In this document: positions 10,104 to 38,772 of the stretch, one piece after another | Numbering within the stretch: position 1 is the first letter of the stretch | Layout of the letters: each line of letters begins with the position of its first letter | Origin: a phage | Strand: one strand, 5' to 3' | Length of the DNA stretch: 44,362 nt | Sequence record: PZ445525.1 | Notes under the pieces: model-generated | Database searches by the model: none | What the model was told of the DNA's origin: nothing | What the model saw: only the letters and a program-made list of their open reading frames with translations | Made by a program: the position numbers and the translations under genes

Positions 10104-10133
10104 TTTGGTCGCTTAAATAGCGAGTGTTAATAT

Positions 10134-10156
10134 GGGGCCAGCACGGCCCCTTTTTA
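10134..10156 (+). terminator. intrinsic terminator after major tail gene
   Basis: hairpin ggggccagcacggcccc followed by TTTTT. Confidence 0.65.
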
Positions 10157-10171
10157 TTGGAGAATACTACA

Positions 10172-10534
10172 ATGGCTAAAGCACCACTCTTTACACTTGA
10201 CCCCAAGCCGACCTTTAAGCTGCCGATTGAGATCCCGCGCCCTGGTGAGAACGAACCCGGCAAAATGACGTTTACCGTCCGCCACCGCCCGATCGACGAA
10301 TTTTCGCAGACCATGCAGGACACCGAACGCAAGCTGTCGGAATATGACGACAATGACCCGGACGGCTTTAACGTTATGGTCGAGGCCATCATGCACGTCG
10401 CAGAAGGCTGGAATCTGCCGGACGAATTTAACGCGGAGAACGTCCGCCGCCTGGTGGTCAACTATCCACGCGCGTTCGGGGTGTTCCACACGTCGTACTA
10501 TCTCGAACTGATGGGGTTGCGTGAAAAAAACTAA
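10172..10534 (+). CDS. tail assembly chaperone (G-like)
   Basis: 120-aa acidic ORF from ATG 10172 with RBS ggaga, between major tail and tape measure genes; ends 3 nt after the slippery heptamer A-AAA-AAC. Confidence 0.7.
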   Translation: MAKAPLFTLDPKPTFKLPIEIPRPGENEPGKMTFTVRHRPIDEFSQTMQDTERKLSEYDDNDPDGFNVMVEAIMHVAEGWNLPDEFNAENVRRLVVNYPRAFGVFHTSYYLELMGLREKN

Positions 10535-10848
10535 TTGAGGCGGCGCGACGCTTTTATGGCCCGCCGCCACCCTCCGAAGATTTAGCCGCAAGTTTATGGG
10601 GTGCGGCCCCCGAAGATGTTTGTCCGCCTGTTGCGCTATGGCCCGACAACGCGAAGGTCGTCGCAGTCTTCACAGATTGCTCCACGCAATGGCGCACCGG
10701 ATTTGGTGGCGCATACGGCATCGACTACGGCGTTCTGGAGTGGCTATTTAAGATGCACGGTATCGAAAACGAGCAGCGTGCGTTTAAAGATATCAAGCTA
10801 ATGGAGCGAATCGCGCTTGATGAGATGGCGCAGCAGAACCCCGCATAA
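10172..10848 (+). CDS. tail assembly chaperone GT fusion via programmed -1 ribosomal frameshift
   Basis: slippery A_AAA_AAC at 10525-10531 just before the G stop; the -1 frame is open for ~105 further codons (LIEAARRFYGPPPPSEDL...QQNPA) to a TAA at 10846-10848. Confidence 0.6.
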
Positions 10849-11170
10849 TGGAGCGGGACAGATCGGGGCGTCCCGTTTTGTCCCGCCTCCGCAAAACTGC
10901 ATACCTACTCACTTCCACTGCATAAACCCAAAACGGGACAAGCGGGACGTCCCGATCTATCCCACCCCATAAATGCGCATACCTATTCATATTTCGTGCA
11001 TAAAGCAAACGGGACAGAAAGCGGGACAAACAAGGGGTGGGACAAAGCGGGGCAGCACCCCGCCCCCACCAGTGCTGCCGCGGGTTTTAGCCGATCGGGA
11101 CAGGCGGGACAACTCCCAGTCTTTCAGACTAGACGGGGGTCAATGGCCCCCCTCGTCTGAGACTGAATAA
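10849..11170. repeat. GGGACA-iteron block with inverted sub-modules and terminal long hairpin (copy A)
   Basis: at least 8 exact GGGACA in ~270 bp; palindrome CGGGACGTCCCG; two inverted ~30-bp modules; 3' part (~10999-11170) about 85-90 percent identical to 38189-38362. Confidence 0.75.
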
Positions 11171-11233
11171 GGTTTGTTTTAAAATCGCTGATACAATGTC
11201 AATCGGCAACTGCATAAAAAAGGGGACTGCATA

Positions 11234-13876
11234 ATGGCAGATCAAGCGGCAGGCATCACGCTAAAGGCGGATGTTGCACAAATCAGAACGGCGAATACTG
11301 TGCTTGATTCATTCGCACAGAAATCCGAGAACACAGAAAACAAGGTTAAGAAATTAAACAACACCCTCGGCAACTCTAAAAAGGTGACGAGTGATGCCGC
11401 GGGCGGAATGGAAAAGCTGGCGAACGAATCGCAGCGCGCCGCCGATGGCATGACGAAACAGGAGCGACTCGCCAACAGGTTAGGCATGTCGACCAAAAAC
11501 CTGGGCTTTGCCTCGCGTAACGCAGCATTCCAGTTACAGGATATTGCGGTAACGCTTGAGATGGGTATGCCTGTGCACCGCGTTATGCTTCAGCAGTTAC
11601 CACAGCTTACTGGGGCGTTCGGTGGATTTGGTAACACGCTGCGTTATGTGGCGGGATTCCTCGGCCCGGTAGGGATCGGCATTGCAGCACTAACGGCAAC
11701 GTTAGGCGTAGGAGTGGCGGTTACGTCCCGTGCCGAAAACCAGGTCGCAGCGCTTAACAAGACGCTGGCGCTGTCGGGTAATATTTCCGGCCTCACCGCT
11801 AACCAGATCCTTGTGCTGTCGGAGAACGCCGAGCGTATGGGCGGGTCATTCAGTAAGACGCGTGACACAATCCAGGCGCTGGCAGCAGCGGGTGTGAAAG
11901 CGGGCGCTGACTTCGGCGCGCTGGCGAAAGTGGTGAATGACTTTGCGAAGGCGTCTAATCAGCCGATCTCTGACGTGGTTGAATCCATCTCAAAATTGTC
12001 GAACGACCCGGTCGGGGGACTGCGCGCACTGGCGGACCAGTATCACGTCGTTACCGAGGCGCAGATCCAGCAGGTGCAATCACTAGTGACGGCGGGTCGC
12101 GAAACCGAAGCGGTGGCGCTGGCTAACAAAACAGCCGCTGCGTCGTTCTCCAGCATGACCAATGAGATCAAGTCCAACATGGGTACGCTCGAGCGGTCGA
12201 TGAACGTCGTCACATCGGCAGCCAAATCCATGTGGGACGCCATCCTGGATGTGGGCCGCGCGCAGTCCTCGAATGAGTCCGAGATGAAAGCGCGTGAATC
12301 CTTGCAGCGCATGACCACGGCGTACTATGCCGAGATGAGGGCGGTAAACGCTGCCGGTGGGGTGATGACCGAAGCGCAGAAAGCGCGTATTAACATGCTT
12401 TACAGCGAACTGGTCGCCCAGGAAAAGGTGGTGGCGTCGCTCACCCTGCGCAACCGTGCCGAGCGAGACAACGCCAGCGCCGCGGACGAAGCCGCAAAGG
12501 CGAACGAGGAGGCCAATCGCACCGCCCGCGACCGCGCCGCGTTTGAGAAGGAGTACGCAACCAACGCGAAGCGGCGAGCCGACGAGATCGCCCGCCTCAA
12601 CTTGCTGAATAAGCGCGGTGTTATTAACGAGAAAGAACTAGCCGAGGCGGTGAAGCAGGTCAACGAGCGCTACAAAGACCCCGCACCGAAGAAAGCGGCG
12701 GCAATTCGAGTCGATGCCGGGCTGAAAATGCTGGAAGTCGCGCGAAGCGAATTAGCCCAGCTTCGAGAGTCTGGGAAGCAGATCGAAGCCAACGCATCGA
12801 CGCAGACCCGCACGCAACGCGCGCAAGCGGCTCTTAACAAGCTGATTGCCGATAATGAGCAGTTAATCGCCGCAAGCAAGGAGCGCACACTAACGGCAGC
12901 AGAAAAGCAGCAAACGGCGGAGTTCGAGGCGGTTAAATCGGTACGCGAGCAGATCGTCGAAGAAGCCAAATTGCTGGACGCGAAAGAGAAGCAGATCAAG
13001 GCACACGCCCAGGTCGAGGCATTCATCAAGAACCAGAACGCCGAGCTAAAAGCCACCGCGGCGGGCTATGCGCTTTCTACTCGCGAAGCGGCTAACCTGC
13101 GCGAAGAGTTGCAGCTAATTGACCGCCTTCAGCGTGCCGGTGCTAACGATACTGATATTGACAAGGCGGTGTCTAAGCTGCGTGAGGTTCAGGAAGCACA
13201 GACCGGTGCTAACGCCTCATTATGGGATGGATTCAGTCGCGGGCTTCGCGATAGTGTGGATGAAATGGGTAACGGATACACGCAGATGGCGTCACTCACA
13301 AAATTCACGTTCGGCGCTATGCAGGACACGATGAACGAGTTTTTCGAGACTGGCAAGCTGAACGCAAAAGATATGGTTAAGTCCATTCTGAGCGAATTAA
13401 TAAAGCTGGCTACCTCGCAGGCGTTCAAGTCCATCGTTAGCGCTTTCGGTGGTGACGGAGGCAAAAACGGATTGTTCGGCGCTATCTTCTCGGGCCTCAC
13501 TAAGAATGCGGACGGCGGAGCGTACGCAGGAGGTAATCTCGCGGCCTATTCGGGGCAGGTGGTAAGCCAGCCAACCTTTTTCAGTTATGGCGTCCAGGCG
13601 TTCGCTAAGGGCGCAGGATTGATGGGTGAGGCGGGACCCGAAGCCATCATGCCGCTGAAGCGCGGCCCGGACGGCAAACTTGGCGTTGCCGCTGCCGGTG
13701 GTGTCGGGGGGATGATTGTAACGACCAACGTTAACATGGGGACCGGTAAGACGGATACCAGTGTTAGCGGACCAGACCCGCGCACCGCGCAGGCGTTCGG
13801 AAAGCAAATCACCGAGTCGGTCAAGGCCGAGATCGTGAAGGCGACGAAACCGGGTGGTGTACTTTACAAACGATGA
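11234..13876 (+). CDS. tail tape measure protein
   Basis: 880-aa Ala/Gln/Glu-rich coiled-coil ORF with RBS aagggga, between chaperone and distal tail genes. Confidence 0.85.
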   Translation: MADQAAGITLKADVAQIRTANTVLDSFAQKSENTENKVKKLNNTLGNSKKVTSDAAGGMEKLANESQRAADGMTKQERLANRLGMSTKNLGFASRNAAFQLQDIAVTLEMGMPVHRVMLQQLPQLTGAFGGFGNTLRYVAGFLGPVGIGIAALTATLGVGVAVTSRAENQVAALNKTLALSGNISGLTANQILVLSENAERMGGSFSKTRDTIQALAAAGVKAGADFGALAKVVNDFAKASNQPISDVVESISKLSNDPVGGLRALADQYHVVTEAQIQQVQSLVTAGRETEAVALANKTAAASFSSMTNEIKSNMGTLERSMNVVTSAAKSMWDAILDVGRAQSSNESEMKARESLQRMTTAYYAEMRAVNAAGGVMTEAQKARINMLYSELVAQEKVVASLTLRNRAERDNASAADEAAKANEEANRTARDRAAFEKEYATNAKRRADEIARLNLLNKRGVINEKELAEAVKQVNERYKDPAPKKAAAIRVDAGLKMLEVARSELAQLRESGKQIEANASTQTRTQRAQAALNKLIADNEQLIAASKERTLTAAEKQQTAEFEAVKSVREQIVEEAKLLDAKEKQIKAHAQVEAFIKNQNAELKATAAGYALSTREAANLREELQLIDRLQRAGANDTDIDKAVSKLREVQEAQTGANASLWDGFSRGLRDSVDEMGNGYTQMASLTKFTFGAMQDTMNEFFETGKLNAKDMVKSILSELIKLATSQAFKSIVSAFGGDGGKNGLFGAIFSGLTKNADGGAYAGGNLAAYSGQVVSQPTFFSYGVQAFAKGAGLMGEAGPEAIMPLKRGPDGKLGVAAAGGVGGMIVTTNVNMGTGKTDTSVSGPDPRTAQAFGKQITESVKAEIVKATKPGGVLYKR

Positions 13877-31593: not shown

Positions 31594-32331
31594 TTAACGG
31601 CGGCGACGTGTACGTGGTGCTTCGTCTTCGTCTTCGTCGTCGTCCTCATCTTCGTCGTCATCGCGGCGCTTGGATTTCTTGGACTTGCGCGGCTTGTCAT
31701 CTTCATCATCGTCATCACGACGTTTTGACTTCTTAGCCTTGCGCGGTGCTTCGTCTTCGTCGTCGTTGTCCAGGTCTTCATCGGAGCAAGAAGACCCGCC
31801 ACCTCCGAAGGCTTCGCCGTCTTCACGGAATCGCAGACCCAGCAAGCCTGCCCCGAGTCCCTTGCCGTTGGTATTGTTCCACGCCCAAATATCAAGGGAC
31901 ACGTTGCAATAACAACCGGAGTAGATCTCCTGGCCTTCAATCTCGTCGCCGTCGACGGTCAGACCCTGTTCAGTCTGCTTCTCGCCTAGTGACGTTTGAA
32001 TGATAGGCTGTTTGAACGATTTGGCGTTGATGTACAACATGCCTTCGAATTCTTCGGTCACTTCGTCGCGCTCGTCGCCGTCGCGAACTGCACATTCCTT
32101 AGAATCTTGGGCGTAGTGGCGGTCCATCCACTTATCGGCATTCTTCTCGGATTTCAGCTTGTCGGTGAGCACTGCGCGTGCTGCCGCTTCCACTTTGTCC
32201 ACCTGCGGATCTTCTTTATCCAGAAGAATAACGGCACGGTATGCCGGTTTTTGTCCATCCTGTTTAGGGGTATCACGCTCCCAAATTTTCAGGAAGCATA
32301 CGCGCACATTTTTCAGGTTGACTTTAGCCAT
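31594..32331 (-). CDS. ssDNA-binding protein candidate (DUF2815-like) with acidic/basic repeat tail
   Basis: 245-aa ORF from MAKVNLKNVRVCF with RBS gagga; C-terminus has alternating K/R-rich and D/E-rich tandem repeats. Confidence 0.55.
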   Translation of the reverse strand: MAKVNLKNVRVCFLKIWERDTPKQDGQKPAYRAVILLDKEDPQVDKVEAAARAVLTDKLKSEKNADKWMDRHYAQDSKECAVRDGDERDEVTEEFEGMLYINAKSFKQPIIQTSLGEKQTEQGLTVDGDEIEGQEIYSGCYCNVSLDIWAWNNTNGKGLGAGLLGLRFREDGEAFGGGGSSCSDEDLDNDDEDEAPRKAKKSKRRDDDDEDDKPRKSKKSKRRDDDEDEDDDEDEDEAPRTRRRR

Positions 32332-34574: not shown

Positions 34575-35084
34575 TTAATCTTCCAGTTCGAAATAGGTTT
34601 CGACGATTTCTTTTAGCTCTTTGTGGAAGTCTTCGACGTCGTCATCTTCCAGCTTGGCGATTGATTTGATCTCGAACGCTTCCAGCAGATCATCAAATTC
34701 GTCGTTAGCGTCGTCGTCATCACCACCGGCAATAATCGCGGCATACTGTTTGATTTCGTCGCGCATCTCCGCCAGCGGATCGGCATCTTTCTTACCTTTG
34801 CCTTTCGCCGGTGCTTTTTTAGCCTTAGCCGGTTTTTCGTCTTCGGCGTCTTCGTCGTCATCTTCTACGACTTCTTTTTTGGCCTTGCCTTTCGCCGGTG
34901 CTTTTTTAGTTTTCGCCGGTGCTTCGTCGTCAGCGTCGTCATCTTCTACGACTTCTTTTTTGGCCTTAGACGGCTTCTTGTCTTCCTGTTTACCAACGGC
35001 AGCGCCAACGGTTTCATAATGTTTGGCGATGGTTTCCAGTGCTACTACGCCGCGAGTGATCAGGTTTACGATTTGTTCGAACAT
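34575..35084 (-). CDS. acidic repeat protein, first gene of leftward operon
   Basis: 169-aa ORF from ATG 35084 with RBS ggaga; two tandem ~24-aa repeats KKEVVEDDD-D-E-PAK-KKAPAKGK-KK. Confidence 0.5.
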   Translation of the reverse strand: MFEQIVNLITRGVVALETIAKHYETVGAAVGKQEDKKPSKAKKEVVEDDDADDEAPAKTKKAPAKGKAKKEVVEDDDEDAEDEKPAKAKKAPAKGKGKKDADPLAEMRDEIKQYAAIIAGGDDDDANDEFDDLLEAFEIKSIAKLEDDDVEDFHKELKEIVETYFELED

Positions 35085-35280
35085 GGTATATCTCCGATTG
35101 GTTAAGTTTAGGTGTCGGCAGTTAACTTCGTCGGTGGCCTTAACATATTGCCCGGTTGCGCGTTCTCCCGTTCGGGTAGTGGACCGGGTTATATAATCAC
35201 GGTTGGGAATCCTGACACTTCGATCCGGCCCCTGCGTTGCCCCTCTCCAGTTTGCGTCCTGCATCCTGTCGACGGAGTGA

Positions 35281-35489: not shown

Positions 35490-35819
35490 ATGAATGTAAA
35501 CGACGCAATCGAAATGTTAACGAAGACTGTTTGCAGTGAGACAAGCCGGTCATGGGCTTATACAGATGCCGTGGGGGCGGTGTTATTCGAAATCGAACGA
35601 CTACGGCTTACCGAAAAAGAATTGCGCGCCCGGCTGGAATTACTCAACGGTACGGCGGCCAGCAAGCTGCAAAAGCACAATGAAGAAATGGAAGAATACA
35701 AAAAGCAGGTTATCCGTTTGCGCGATGAGGGAAAGTCATGGGCGATGATTGCCGAGTTAACCGGAATTAATCAGAGCACTGTGCGCTCATGGGTACGCAA
35801 TAATAAAACTTCTAAGTAA
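35490..35819 (+). CDS. helix-turn-helix DNA-binding protein
   Basis: 109-aa ORF; C-terminal S-W-A-M-I-A-E-L-T-G-I-N-Q-S-T-V-R-S-W HTH-like segment; first gene of rightward operon. Confidence 0.55.
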   Translation: MNVNDAIEMLTKTVCSETSRSWAYTDAVGAVLFEIERLRLTEKELRARLELLNGTAASKLQKHNEEMEEYKKQVIRLRDEGKSWAMIAELTGINQSTVRSWVRNNKTSK

Positions 35820-35829
35820 GGCAACGGCA

Positions 35830-38094
35830 ATGAGCTTAATCAAATTCGCTGTAACACGCCCCGCTAAAAAAGGCGAAAAAGCCAGGGCGGAAAACTTCCA
35901 GATGACCACCGACGAGTTTTTCGAATTTATCAACGATGCTAAAGAAATATCCTCGGTGCATATCAACAAGACGGAAGATAAAGCCGAGTATGCGCGCCGC
36001 AAGCGTAAGGCCGATGGCATTGTGGCTTATACCAGTGATGGGCTGCGCCGCAAGACCAGTGCGGTGGATCGCTCGATCCTGTTCTTCGATATTGACCGTA
36101 CCGACACCCGCACCCTGCGCCGCTGCCGTAAGGCGTTTATCGACGCGGGGCTGGAACACGTATTTCACACCACAACCGGCGACCGCCACCCGCTGAAAGG
36201 CGGCACGCGTTGCGCGCGTTTCCTGGTGCTAACGGATAAGCCTGTACCGGCTGAAGACCTGGGCCGCGTCCAGTATGCACTATTACACCAACTGGGCCTG
36301 TCAGATGTGGACTTCGATGATTGTACGAAAGACACAAACCGCCTAATGTACCTGCCGCACCAGCAATCGGTTATCAAATGCCATTACGGAAAGCGCGCCC
36401 GCGTCCGTCGTCTGCTTCGCCTGGCGGATAAGCTGGGAGTGGAAAAAGAGGAAGTACGCCGCGAACTAACCCAGGGCGATGACGGCGTGGCGGACGGCAT
36501 TCTGGATTGGTGCTTCCAGGCAGGATTCGAACCGCTGTCGTCCGGTCGTGGTTATGAAGTGCCGTGCCCTAACGAACACCTGCACAGCGGCGAAGGGTCC
36601 ACCGCTATCATGGTTAAGGATGGCGAGATCCGTTTCAAGTGTATGCACACCGGCAACGAGTGTTGCTCGGAACTGAACAGACACCAGCACCTGGCGCTAA
36701 GTCTTATCGGGATACCGGACCACCTGAACGTCGAACCGCACAACATGTCACGCAAGCAAATCGCCGCCATTCTCCCAGGACTGGACGACGAGGAAGTGGA
36801 ATCGTGCTATGCGCATATCGTTGATGCGGTCGGTGACGGCGACGAGTACGGCGGATGTACCGATGCGGACCTGGACAACGAACCGGTCGCACTGTTCAGC
36901 AAGCACGACCCGATCATCGAGGGGTTGATTAACTTCAAATCGACCTGGTATATGGCGGGTGAGTCGAATATCGGTAAATCGTTCTACGTGCTGGGGCAAA
37001 TGGGTGCGGTTGCCGCTGGGATTCCGTTCGGTGGCGCGAAGGTAGTCCAGTCTCATTGCTTCTATTTCGACGCGGAAGGTGGCGAAGCCTCCCACCAGCG
37101 TAAGGAAGCATTGCAGATTAAATACGAGCACGACCTGGACAAGCTGCACATTATCGACCTGCAATCTCGCGGCTGGGATATCACCAGCAAATCCGGCTTG
37201 CGTGAAGTTATCAGCTTTATCAACCGCACCGCTAACGGCGAACCGGTTGGCCTGGTGGCGTTCGACTCACTCAACCAGACTGTTGCGCTGCGGTCCGCCG
37301 ATGCTAAACCGTTCGACGAGAACAACGCCAGCGATATGGGCGAAGTGGTCAAGGCGCTGAAGGCCATTGCGGAAAATACCGGCGGCAGTGCTGGCGTCAT
37401 CCACCACCCGGCGAAAGGTGCAAACGGCAGCAGAACCCCACGCGGGTCCGGCGCGCTGCATGGTGCTGTCGATTCCGCGTTCTTCCTGGAGCAACCGGAC
37501 GACAATCAGCCGGGCCAATTGAACCTGTTTCACGAAAAGGCACGTAACGGCATCAAGCAAGCGCCGCGCGGATTCGTCCTGCTCAAGTGCAAGGTTAAGG
37601 TTGATCTCCGCAAGTCCGAGGCGTTCGAAGCCCACCAGTCCACCTGCTCCGGGCCGGACTTCGGGGACGTCGTTGCCGGTTGGGACGTCAAGCCAATTGC
37701 CTCCACGCCACGCGACGAGACTCTTTACCTCGTACCTGTCGCCCTGGCACCGTTCGCTATCGAACAGGCGAAGGCCGCGGGCAAGGCCGCAGTTAAGGAA
37801 GAGAACGCCGCAGGCCCGCGCAACGAAAAAGAGAAAGTGCTTTATGCGGCGCTGGAAAAACTGATGGAAGATAACCCGGACCATACCGGATTCAGCAAAT
37901 CGGCAATCGTCCGCCAGGCGGGATTGGCAAAAGGGGGTACGTCGACGAAGGCAATCGACGATATGGTCGAGCGCGGCGTACTCGGTTTTTATACAGACCC
38001 GCACACCGGGGCCATCTATGGGTCGTCAAATATCGTCATAAAAACGAACATACCCATCACGCTTTCTGCGACCGACGATGACTTAAAAGATTAA
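35830..38094 (+). CDS. bifunctional primase-helicase (AEP-type prim-pol domain fused to RecA-fold helicase)
   Basis: N-terminal I-L-F-F-D-I-D-R (DxD) primase motif; zinc-ribbon cysteines; Walker A G-E-S-N-I-G-K-S and Walker B-like V-A-F-D-S; ~190-aa C-terminal extension. Confidence 0.8.
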   Translation: MSLIKFAVTRPAKKGEKARAENFQMTTDEFFEFINDAKEISSVHINKTEDKAEYARRKRKADGIVAYTSDGLRRKTSAVDRSILFFDIDRTDTRTLRRCRKAFIDAGLEHVFHTTTGDRHPLKGGTRCARFLVLTDKPVPAEDLGRVQYALLHQLGLSDVDFDDCTKDTNRLMYLPHQQSVIKCHYGKRARVRRLLRLADKLGVEKEEVRRELTQGDDGVADGILDWCFQAGFEPLSSGRGYEVPCPNEHLHSGEGSTAIMVKDGEIRFKCMHTGNECCSELNRHQHLALSLIGIPDHLNVEPHNMSRKQIAAILPGLDDEEVESCYAHIVDAVGDGDEYGGCTDADLDNEPVALFSKHDPIIEGLINFKSTWYMAGESNIGKSFYVLGQMGAVAAGIPFGGAKVVQSHCFYFDAEGGEASHQRKEALQIKYEHDLDKLHIIDLQSRGWDITSKSGLREVISFINRTANGEPVGLVAFDSLNQTVALRSADAKPFDENNASDMGEVVKALKAIAENTGGSAGVIHHPAKGANGSRTPRGSGALHGAVDSAFFLEQPDDNQPGQLNLFHEKARNGIKQAPRGFVLLKCKVKVDLRKSEAFEAHQSTCSGPDFGDVVAGWDVKPIASTPRDETLYLVPVALAPFAIEQAKAAGKAAVKEENAAGPRNEKEKVLYAALEKLMEDNPDHTGFSKSAIVRQAGLAKGGTSTKAIDDMVERGVLGFYTDPHTGAIYGSSNIVIKTNIPITLSATDDDLKD

Positions 38095-38164
38095 ATTTTG
38101 CGCGCATTGGTTGCCATTTTGAGTGTTTCTAGCCGGTCGTATTGGTTGCCGTGTAGTGTGAACA

Positions 38165-38362
38165 TAGTGAATAGTTATGCAGTTTTATTGCATAAAACAA
38201 ACGGGACAAAAGGCGGGACAAACAAGGGGCGGGACAAAGCGGGACAGCACCCCGTCCCACCCCCGGATGACGCGGCCTGGAGAGGAGCGGGACAAGCGGG
38301 ACAAACCCCAGTCTTTCAGACTAGACGGGGGTCAGTGGCCCCCCTCGTCTGAGACTGAATAA
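38165..38362. repeat. GGGACA-iteron block with terminal long hairpin (copy B)
   Basis: 6 exact GGGACA in ~120 bp; hairpin CAGTCTTTCAGACTAGACGGGGGTCAGTGGCCCCCCTCGTCTGAGACTG differs from copy A by one loop base. Confidence 0.75.
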
Positions 38363-38516
38363 AATCCGGGGATTGCAAAATACACGGCAGCATGATGCGA
38401 AGTGCGGTCGCGGATGAACTAGGCAACCAATGCCAGTTGTATTATGCGGAGTGAAAAACGCAGTTTGCAGTCACAGCAGATAGCGATCAACTTTTTCATG
38501 CGCGTGATTAATATTG

Positions 38517-38552
38517 GTTGCATTCAGCCCGGCACCCGGCTATATTGGTTGC
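38517..38552 (+). promoter_or_regulatory. candidate promoter for small early genes with paired ATTGGTTGCA motifs
   Basis: TTGCAT (within ATATTGGTTGCAT), 17-nt spacer, TATATT, then GGTTGCACACCAAC, the same string found at the moron promoter. Confidence 0.4.
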
Positions 38553-38574
38553 ACACCAACATGAGGGCTGAACG

Positions 38575-38772
38575 ATGGAACACGAAGACCTGGTCGACGA
38601 ACTGTTAGAACTGATTGAGGCCGAGAACAAAGCTGATTTGCAAGCACGCGCAGCGTACATGGTCGGCAACATTAAGAAATCGCGCCACTACGCCGGATTG
38701 CGTGTAAAGGCGCAAGAGGCCTTGCTGCAATTCCTGGACAGCGTAACTATCACGAAGAGGACCGAACAATGA
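38575..38772 (+). CDS. small acidic hypothetical protein
   Basis: 65-aa ORF with RBS gagggctgaacg; acidic N-terminal half. Confidence 0.5.
   Translation: MEHEDLVDELLELIEAENKADLQARAAYMVGNIKKSRHYAGLRVKAQEALLQFLDSVTITKRTEQ

Follow-up and report, generated by a model that had tools for sequence, protein, structure and literature searches.

Why should a siphophage keep 385 bp of DNA without a gene in the middle of its tail operon? The question is posed by positions 10849-11233 of a stretch of 44,362 nucleotides (nt) in record PZ445525.1, all of which is called the window below and which is the genome of a Dhillonvirus, an HK578/SO-1-like coliphage. The block (copy A) has a partial twin (copy B) directly behind the gene for a 754-residue primase-helicase. 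We argue from comparative evidence that the two are copies of a cis-acting, initiator-binding replication-origin module of the phage, a reading to which we assign a probability of roughly 0.62, and that copy A is most likely the duplicate, the original copy sitting just after the primase-helicase gene. The feature itself is real and statistically solid. A preliminary description, made by reading the sequence, had placed about 385 bp of non-coding DNA between a chaperone gene and the tape measure protein (TMP) gene, and the domains encoded on the two flanks bear that out.

The repeats carry the argument. The hexamer GGGACA occurs seven times on the plus strand and once on the minus strand of 10849-11233, and six times on the plus strand of 38203-38303; the remaining 43.5 kb hold only eight more copies, counting both strands. 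Dinucleotide shuffles of region A (n=5000) yield a mean of 0.32 copies and a maximum of 3, against the 8 observed, so that the count of at least eight in the preliminary description survives comparison with chance, and in shuffles of the whole window (n=200) no 385-bp segment holds more than three. The heptamer CGGGACA occurs 16 times in the window (6.1 expected; none of 100 shuffles reaches 16), and an unbiased scan of 7-mers returns it as the word with the strongest local clustering. Region A thus has what characterizes iteron-type origins, a cluster of short direct repeats far above chance and approximately one helical turn apart. Copy A and its flanks are made up as follows.

10124-10534: TAC G (Phage_TAC_4 chaperone), in the upstream flank of copy A.
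Ending at 10848 (stop codon 10846-10848): the T part (DUF1799), directly before copy A.
10849-11233, plus strand: copy A, the whole non-coding block of 385 bp from the T-part stop to the TMP start.
10854-10885, plus strand: iteron cluster 1 (CGGGACA, 9 nt, GTCCCG, TTTT, GTCCCG), a weak terminator-like hairpin right after the T stop.
10899-10926, plus strand: box 1, GCATACCTA-N11-TGCATAAA, a diverged copy of the copy B box GTGAATAGTTATGCA-N7-TGCATAAA.
10934-10954, plus strand: iteron cluster 2, in which CGGGACA precedes the perfect palindrome CGGGACGTCCCG (10943-10954).
10977-11004, plus strand: box 2, GCATACCTA-N11-TGCATAAA, the start of the module common to A and B.
11010-11111, plus strand: the main iteron array, with spacings of 9-16 bp; CGGGACA at 11010, 11022, 11096 and 11105, TGGGACA at 11038, CGGGGCA at 11048, an inverted GCCCC at about 11061, and the conserved core CCAGTGCTGCCGCGG between its two iteron sets.
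11117-11165, plus strand: a 49-nt imperfect hairpin, CAGTCT...AGACTG, CAGTCTTTCAGACTAGACGGGGGTCAATGGCCCCCCTCGTCTGAGACTG.
11189-11197, plus strand: TGaTACAAT, which resembles an extended -10 promoter element and lies 36 nt ahead of the TMP start codon (a sequence match only).
11204-11210: CGGCAAC, after the -10-like element.
From start codon 11234: the tape measure protein (TMP_2, Tape_meas_lam_C), directly after copy A.

The palindrome and the long hairpin are where the preliminary description had seen them, the latter at a length of 49 nt. It had also proposed two 5' modules in inverted orientation, each with a box downstream. The modules and their boxes stand, each GCATACCTA...TGCATAAA box coming after an iteron cluster; the inverted orientation does not, since the clusters are not inverted with respect to each other and each has inverted iterons within it. 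Box 2 reads GTGAATAGTTATGCAG...GCATAAA in HK578, the same type as in copy B. Copy A opens with the weak terminator-like hairpin (CGGGAC...GTCCCG, then TTTT) and closes with TGaTACAAT, so far as sequence matches go. The small iteron hairpin (10854-10875) with its TTTT is a candidate weak terminator, the GGGACGTCCCGTTTT of this cluster is kept in most of 16 aligned A copies, and the HK578 record carries a rho-independent terminator annotation over this first hairpin. At the other end, CTGATACAAT of the -10-like element is invariant in all A copies, and TGATACAAT is a putative promoter within copy A. The short open reading frames (ORFs) in copy A are not genes, because close relatives differ in them by 1-nt insertions and deletions and by variable spacers, just as one would expect of the repeat, rather than the gene, that had been proposed; several GenBank records nevertheless call "hypothetical proteins" across the block.

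Two other readings of the boxes were tried and set aside. A DnaA box in TGCATAAA (reverse complement TTTATGCA) was rejected because the bases needed to complete TTATNCACA are free to vary from copy to copy, and a sigma-54 promoter in CACGGCAGCA...TGC because its spacing, judged by eye, is off by one.

Copy B and the genes before it lie some way off, copy A being 17 to 27 kb from the primase-helicase gene.

35490-35819, plus strand: a 109-residue helix-turn-helix (HTH) protein (HTH_23 / sigma-70 region 4-like), just upstream of the primase-helicase.
35830-38094, plus strand: the primase-helicase, 754 residues, the proposed iteron-binding initiator.
38095-38574, plus strand: the copy B region, all of the non-coding DNA from the primase-helicase stop to the next gene.
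38167-38196, plus strand: box B, GTGAATAGTTATGCAG-N6-TGCATAAA, with the inverted repeat TTATGCA-N7-TGCATAA.
38202-38303, plus strand: the copy B iteron array, CGGGACA at 38202, 38214, 38230, 38240, 38288 and 38297, with an inverted GTCCC at about 38253.
38309-38357, plus strand: the copy B hairpin, 49 nt long and differing from that of A at one place in the loop.

The second copy had been put at about 170 bp of 85-90% identity. It is there, slightly longer and slightly less identical: 10979-11170 and 38171-38362 form a direct repeat of 192 nt with 84% ungapped identity. Copy B starts directly after the stop of the primase-helicase gene, so that it has the adjacency to a cognate initiator gene, here a proposed one, that marks iteron origins, an adjacency found also in five relatives and, among the matches listed in the metagenome search described below, at 23 of 24 distant loci. 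The protein's helicase core is AAA_25 and RepA-like, of the RSF1010 type (an AAA_25 Pfam match and a weak match to 1g8y); the protein also has a zinc motif and, at the N-terminus, a primase-like region without a Pfam match. At its C-terminus, at about residues 665-740, a variable winged helix is predicted: in an AlphaFold2 model of residues 590-754, made from an alignment of 40 sequences, the domain has three helices and a beta wing, at a pLDDT (predicted local distance difference test) of 76-88. A homologue search with the C-terminal 175 residues alone found nothing; the full-length query did find homologues. Homologues of the protein number at least 327.

Every relative examined that has a homologue of this primase-helicase has a non-coding block of 290-900 bp 3' of its gene. 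The architecture of that block is the same and its short repeat differs by lineage, as the following entries show (percentages are identities to the primase-helicase).

Salmonella phage FSL SP-031 (Cornellvirus), 44%: GGGGGAGA, with seven of the nine genomic GGGGAGA in 150 bp, one of them inverted.
Locus L025, 68%: CGGGACA and the same hairpin.
Loci L026 and L054, 46%: GGGATC type.
Locus L052, 48%: TTGCGAGT in about eight copies, and a 65-nt hairpin.
Edwardsiella phage eiAU, 45%: CGCCCCG.

In SP-031 too the GTGAATAGTTATGCAG box comes before the repeats, as it does in the window (the first half of box B is found in SP-031 and also in Kagunavirus promoter/operator DNA), and a motif (A)CGGCA(G/A)C recurs 3' of the hairpin in all compared relatives. 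The winged helix is the least conserved part of the protein, the helicase core being nearly invariant, and the start of its recognition helix varies with the class of iteron: GG[TS]-[ST][TS][KT] goes with CGGGACA, GGD-RYK with GGGGGAGA and GGK-RRP with the GGGATC type. On this comparative evidence the location of copy B behind the primase-helicase gene is ancestral, and copy B is probably the primary origin.

Copy A is no recent arrival. BLASTN with 10400-11700 as query gives matches in 159 phage records, 80-95% identical and nearly all from Escherichia or Shigella Dhillonvirus, and copy A is present at a coverage of at least 80% in 146 of the 159. The sister lineage (TAC 60-63% and primase-helicase 68% identical) also has copy A before TMP, behind one or two reverse-strand moron ORFs, and the T-TMP block of eiAU shares GCAACCAAC arrays, CGCCCCG and a segment of about 40 bp with eiAU's own post-helicase region. 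In Dhillonvirus as in eiAU, then, A and B share the iteron of their lineage. The expectation that related phages would have T and TMP adjacent holds for SP-031 only, which has a different tail module type and no T-TMP block; the closest outgroups carry the block. Among 41 unique Dhillonvirus copies the iterons are nearly invariant and the spacers variable; the lower stem of the hairpin is invariant, and its apical loop varies around a G5-6/C5-6 stem that is kept. Pairing is also kept between lineages, an A..T pair having become G..C in the sister lineage and the outer helix of the eiAU hairpin having been replaced on both arms with GACGGGGG/CCCCTCGTC retained. Lineage-specific variants are shared between A and B (LM40P1) and one B copy has an A-type core, so the two appear to have undergone gene conversion. 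Copy A is old and has been maintained.

To test the link between array and helicase independently, IMG/VR was scanned for three CGGGAC(A) units in a row. The 114 new loci among the matches listed are uninformative as a raw count, because a composition-matched control motif, GGCGACA, also gives at least 120. What separates the two is solely the association with a helicase gene. A distant homologue of the helicase (24-29% identity) is encoded at 24 of the 114 listed loci, which are non-Dhillonvirus and of 53-67% GC, and at none of the 120 listed control loci. At 23 of the 24 the array starts 2-110 nt 3' of the helicase stop and inverted copies follow. Several of the CGGGAC matches, and most of the control matches, are coding tandem repeats. 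One CGGGAC array lies 34 nt after the gene for a D5_N/DUF5906/Pox_D5 helicase of superfamily 3 (SF3; D5/P4-alpha-like), and others are found within ORFs whose PHROGs annotation is that of a DnaD-like, O-like or replisome-organizer initiator; an origin inside the initiator ORF is the classical position in lambda and SPP1. This breadth of CGGGAC arrays in the replication modules of unrelated phages (in our numbering loci L057-L163, e.g. L063, L071, L079, L105 and L157, and L069, L085, L128 and L154) is unexpected. It raises the thought, which we entertain as a rather doubtful one, that CGGGAC(A) is a widely shared origin "word" of non-homologous initiators in phages of about 37% to 67% GC. Those initiators may comprise AAA_25 primase-helicases, the SF3 D5/P4-alpha-like helicase and DnaD/O-like replisome organizers; the sharing may come from the swapping of a mobile winged-helix module for origin recognition between initiator scaffolds, or the sequence may exploit a conserved host or structural feature.

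The origin reading is favoured, then, by the place of copy B 3' of the primase-helicase gene, by iterons that switch with lineage, by the winged helix and by a helicase-array association that the control motif lacks. The position, repetition and conservation of the modules, the predicted fold and the statistical association across phages are what the analysis shows, and comparative evidence of this kind favours the iterons of a two-part origin among the candidate functions listed in the preliminary description.

How might such a module work? It has a short palindromic box, CGGGACA iterons about one helical turn apart (some inverted), a GC-rich core and a long conserved hairpin. The primase-helicase would bind the iterons through its C-terminal winged helix, its RepA-like helicase would assemble and open the flanking DNA, and the hairpin, once extruded, might be an assembly or priming site for the primase domain of the same protein. 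Copy A would be an old duplicate lodged between T and TMP, where the conserved extended -10 element at its end would restart TMP transcription past the weak terminator. It is most likely a second initiator-binding site, and by analogy could serve as a second origin, as an enhancer like crr of P4 or as a fork barrier like oriR of SPP1. We infer the identity of the binder, the start of replication at the module and a contribution of copy A from the comparisons set out above.

Several observations pull the other way. Between the iteron sets there is no long AT-rich unwinding element; the AT-rich flanks measure only 30-40 bp (about 10980-11019 and 11160-11219, GC 0.30-0.38) and the interior is GC-rich. 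Cumulative GC skew has its minimum at about 34-35 kb, at neither A nor B, and is in any case uninformative about the origin because it follows gene orientation. The distant CGGGAC-associated helicases carry a different-looking C-terminal motif, KKAFxRA, for which reason the assignment of winged helix to iteron remains a predicted one. Since iteron type tracks lineage, any lineage-specific protein, the adjacent HTH protein for example, would fit as the binder. Both copies and all flanking genes are co-oriented, which leaves room for a role at the RNA level, and the options for copy A (origin, enhancer, barrier) are drawn purely from analogy.

The strongest of the alternatives makes the repeats an array for a regulator: the 109-residue HTH protein would bind CGGGACA and control transcription at two operon boundaries, throwing the early/late switch at B and setting TMP dosage at A, with replication starting elsewhere. 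We retain this option, which had been among those first listed, because the small HTH gene adjoins the primase-helicase gene. An HTH_23-type protein and the CGGGACA iteron do go together in Dhillonvirus and L025, copy A has a terminator-like hairpin at one end and a conserved extended -10 element at the other, and pRN1 has a repressor gene upstream of its replication gene (PMC4234260). We judge it unlikely nonetheless: SP-031, L026 and L052 all have HTH_3-type proteins yet three different iterons, CGGGAC arrays recur in unrelated phages behind helicase genes or inside O-like initiators, in classical origin position, and operon starts throughout the genome are already marked by a separate motif, ATTGGTTGC.

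That motif looks, from its distribution, like a phage-specific promoter or operator element. It has 29 matches in the window at no more than one mismatch (12.5 expected; shuffle maximum 22), mostly paired, intergenic at operon starts and pointing the same way as the genes downstream. Region B has five copies and, in this window, region A has none; A copies of the sister lineage and of eiAU do carry the element, as GCAACCAAC arrays. The sites are these.

5240/5253, 21302, 25842/25859, 28803/28815, 38423 and 39272, minus strand: ATTGGTTGC.
35288, 38106/38141 and 38513/38544, plus strand: ATTGGTTGC.
24175/24186: ATTGGTTGC.

Pairs of this promoter-like motif just upstream of module B also speak for a second alternative, in which the module acts once transcribed, its hairpin being a terminator, attenuator or processing site or giving a stable small RNA, and its repeats protein-binding motifs in RNA. 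Both copies are oriented with transcription, their RNA folds are stable (z-scores -2.3 and -3.0; the copy A hairpin has an RNA fold of about -28 kcal/mol and a DNA-fold z-score of -3.0), and the hairpin shows the compensatory changes already described. An intrinsic terminator should be a GC-rich stem-loop with a run of T, and the long hairpin is followed by AATAAGG in copy A and AATAAAA in copy B, with no T-run, and receives no call in a terminator scan; consensus scans for sigma-70 promoters and terminators gave counts no different from those of shuffled sequence. A scan of the whole window against Rfam 15 at gathering scores gave no match. The iterons also occur inverted, as perfect DNA palindromes and at helical-turn intervals, and homologous arrays sit inside initiator coding sequences in other phages. 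We therefore regard an RNA-level function as improbable.

Still less probable is a packaging signal, in which the repeats would be sites for the terminase small subunit in a pac or cos region. Three records from different submitters (BMA1, SP1 and PEC9) start and end at the position that corresponds to window 38473 (...GCAGTCA|CAGCAGATAGCG...), about 115 bp after hairpin B and inside region B. The shared position may mark a physical terminus or pac cut, or submitters may have copied a convention. The linear eiAU record (L315, KF772233) likewise starts and ends inside its own T-TMP non-coding block, in the GCAACCAAC array. Against this, the small-subunit gene terS lies 5.3 kb downstream of B, the published PhageTerm calls disagree (headful for Opt-212; for EE09 a cos site of unrelated sequence), breaks of records and contigs at the A/B repeat are what assemblers usually do at repeats, two pac sites 17 and 27 kb apart are hard to square with one genome length, and the link with helicase genes in unrelated phages is left unexplained.

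That copy A is a selfish or mobile insertion, akin to a miniature inverted-repeat transposable element, which landed between T and TMP, as had also been suggested, is hardly credible: it does interrupt a normally compact gene pair, in a slot where the sister lineage and eiAU also have reverse-strand moron ORFs, but each genome has just two copies, neither terminal inverted repeats nor a target duplication can be read at 10849 or 11233, position and content are conserved over three lineages down to about 45% protein identity, and the sequence is that of the phage's own module B.

The repeat pair has left traces in the databases. Both copies are annotated as repeat_region in the Sodalis phage SO-1 record (GQ502199), copy A as "region A" (11214-11597) and copy B as "region B", with a note on region A that speaks of "direct, inverted and palindromic repeat sequences" and of similarity to region B; the GenBank flagging of the pair dates to 2009. 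A literature search found no paper that analyses the two regions. The feature, most likely a duplicated origin module, has a layout already familiar from SPP1 and P4, and it had been noticed in this database record. Records and contigs often break at the A/B repeat or carry artefactual duplications there (L020, L021, L182 and the metagenome loci L027-L049): the Kente record (L020) is split inside region A with about 80 bp missing, and the UNVERIFIED TH11 record (L021) has a 515-bp duplication. The hairpin is the end point of many metagenome contigs; the notion that these ends are physical termini was rejected, as they are repeat-induced assembly breaks.

The surroundings of copy B vary. The 7-nt spacer of TTATGCA-N7-TGCATAA (38175-38195) is found in both orientations (GTTTTAT, ATAAAAC) among close relatives, the pattern that loop inversion or template switching leaves at a hairpin or cruciform. 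Most Dhillonviruses (e.g. L021, L022 and L023) have an extra 54-bp unit right after the primase-helicase stop, with another ATTGGTTGCC and a 24-bp perfect palindrome, GCGATATGGGAATTCCCATATCGC. It is absent from the window, HK578, SO-1 and LM40P1, the remaining unit of LM40P1 still carrying a palindrome-like GATATGGGAATTCCCAT segment. A 65-residue ORF after region B (38575-38772) has no counterpart in 12 other B loci, and the 100-nt anchor used matches the window only; since relatives carry different small genes there, the slot is a variable moron position beside the module. Farther off, GTC/TTC-rich direct repeats at 31613-31783 and 34781-34967 lie inside minus-strand ORFs, in the region of a Gp2.5-like single-stranded DNA-binding protein gene and in a 229-residue ORF (34575-35264), respectively, and probably encode acidic repeat tails unrelated to the origin module.

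To our knowledge the replication origin of the Dhillonviruses, common coliphages in the BASEL collection and among therapy and biocontrol isolates, has never been defined. On the origin reading the A and B blocks become concrete targets for the engineer of these genomes, to be neither deleted nor split, and the repeat accounts for the trouble that assemblers and annotators have had, in the form of broken contigs and spurious "hypothetical proteins". If the origin reading is right, origins could be predicted in many uncultivated phages wherever an iteron array comes immediately 3' of a RepA-like primase-helicase gene. Should CGGGAC(A) also be a shared word, the class that shares it would have its first tractable model in the duplicated Dhillonvirus module and the invariant hairpin of that module, because BASEL phages and an E. 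coli K-12 host exist. A two-site mechanism controlling the switch to concatemer replication would become testable.

What known systems does the module resemble? The RSF1010 (IncQ) oriV works with a RepA-type helicase and combines iterons with hairpins, ssiA and ssiB, that a dedicated primase recognizes (PMC4234260). It differs in having three separate proteins (RepA, RepB' and RepC) where the window has one fusion protein, and two ssi hairpins on opposite strands of one origin where the window has one hairpin per module, in the same orientation. In pRN1 (ORF904) and Bordetella phage BIP-1 a small DNA-binding gene, a primase-helicase-winged-helix gene and an essential 3' cis element containing a long stem-loop follow one another (PMC4234260), much as in the HTH gene, primase-helicase gene and module B. 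In contrast to the window, which combines iterons with a hairpin and has the module in duplicate, pRN1 has no iterons, and its helicase is of the SF3 type. The stem-loop origin of pRN1 and the ssi hairpins of RSF1010 are the precedents for proposing that the hairpin may be a priming site. The alpha protein of P4 unites primase, helicase and an iteron-binding C-terminal winged helix in one polypeptide, and its short iterons too lie at two separated cis sites, ori and crr (PMC4234260). Here the differences are a Toprim primase and an SF3 helicase in alpha as against AAA_25 (RepA/RecA-like) in the window's protein, a different iteron sequence, and a crr that lies outside any structural operon.

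SPP1 offers a parallel in layout. This virulent siphophage, whose genome measures about 44 kb, carries two origin modules that resemble each other and are built of direct repeats; one is in or at the initiator gene (gp38), and a non-coding interruption among the late virion-assembly genes, with transcription signals on either side, houses the other (PMC6316719). Copies A and B have just this arrangement of two homologous modules, one at the gene for the proposed initiator and one in a late-gene break. The parts are not the same. SPP1 uses a separate replisome organizer, its own loader and a DnaB-type helicase where a single primase-helicase-winged-helix fusion is proposed here; its origins have a clear AT-rich unwinding element and are without a conserved long hairpin; its modules share no sequence homology with those of the window; and oriR lies among head genes, copy A between T and TMP. 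At oriR, a barrier with bound initiator has been proposed to stall the replication fork and trigger the switch to sigma, or concatemer, synthesis (PMC6316719). If copy A is a second initiator-binding site, as is most likely, the Dhillonviruses would offer an E. coli system for that SPP1-style idea, in which such a site governs the passage from theta to sigma replication.

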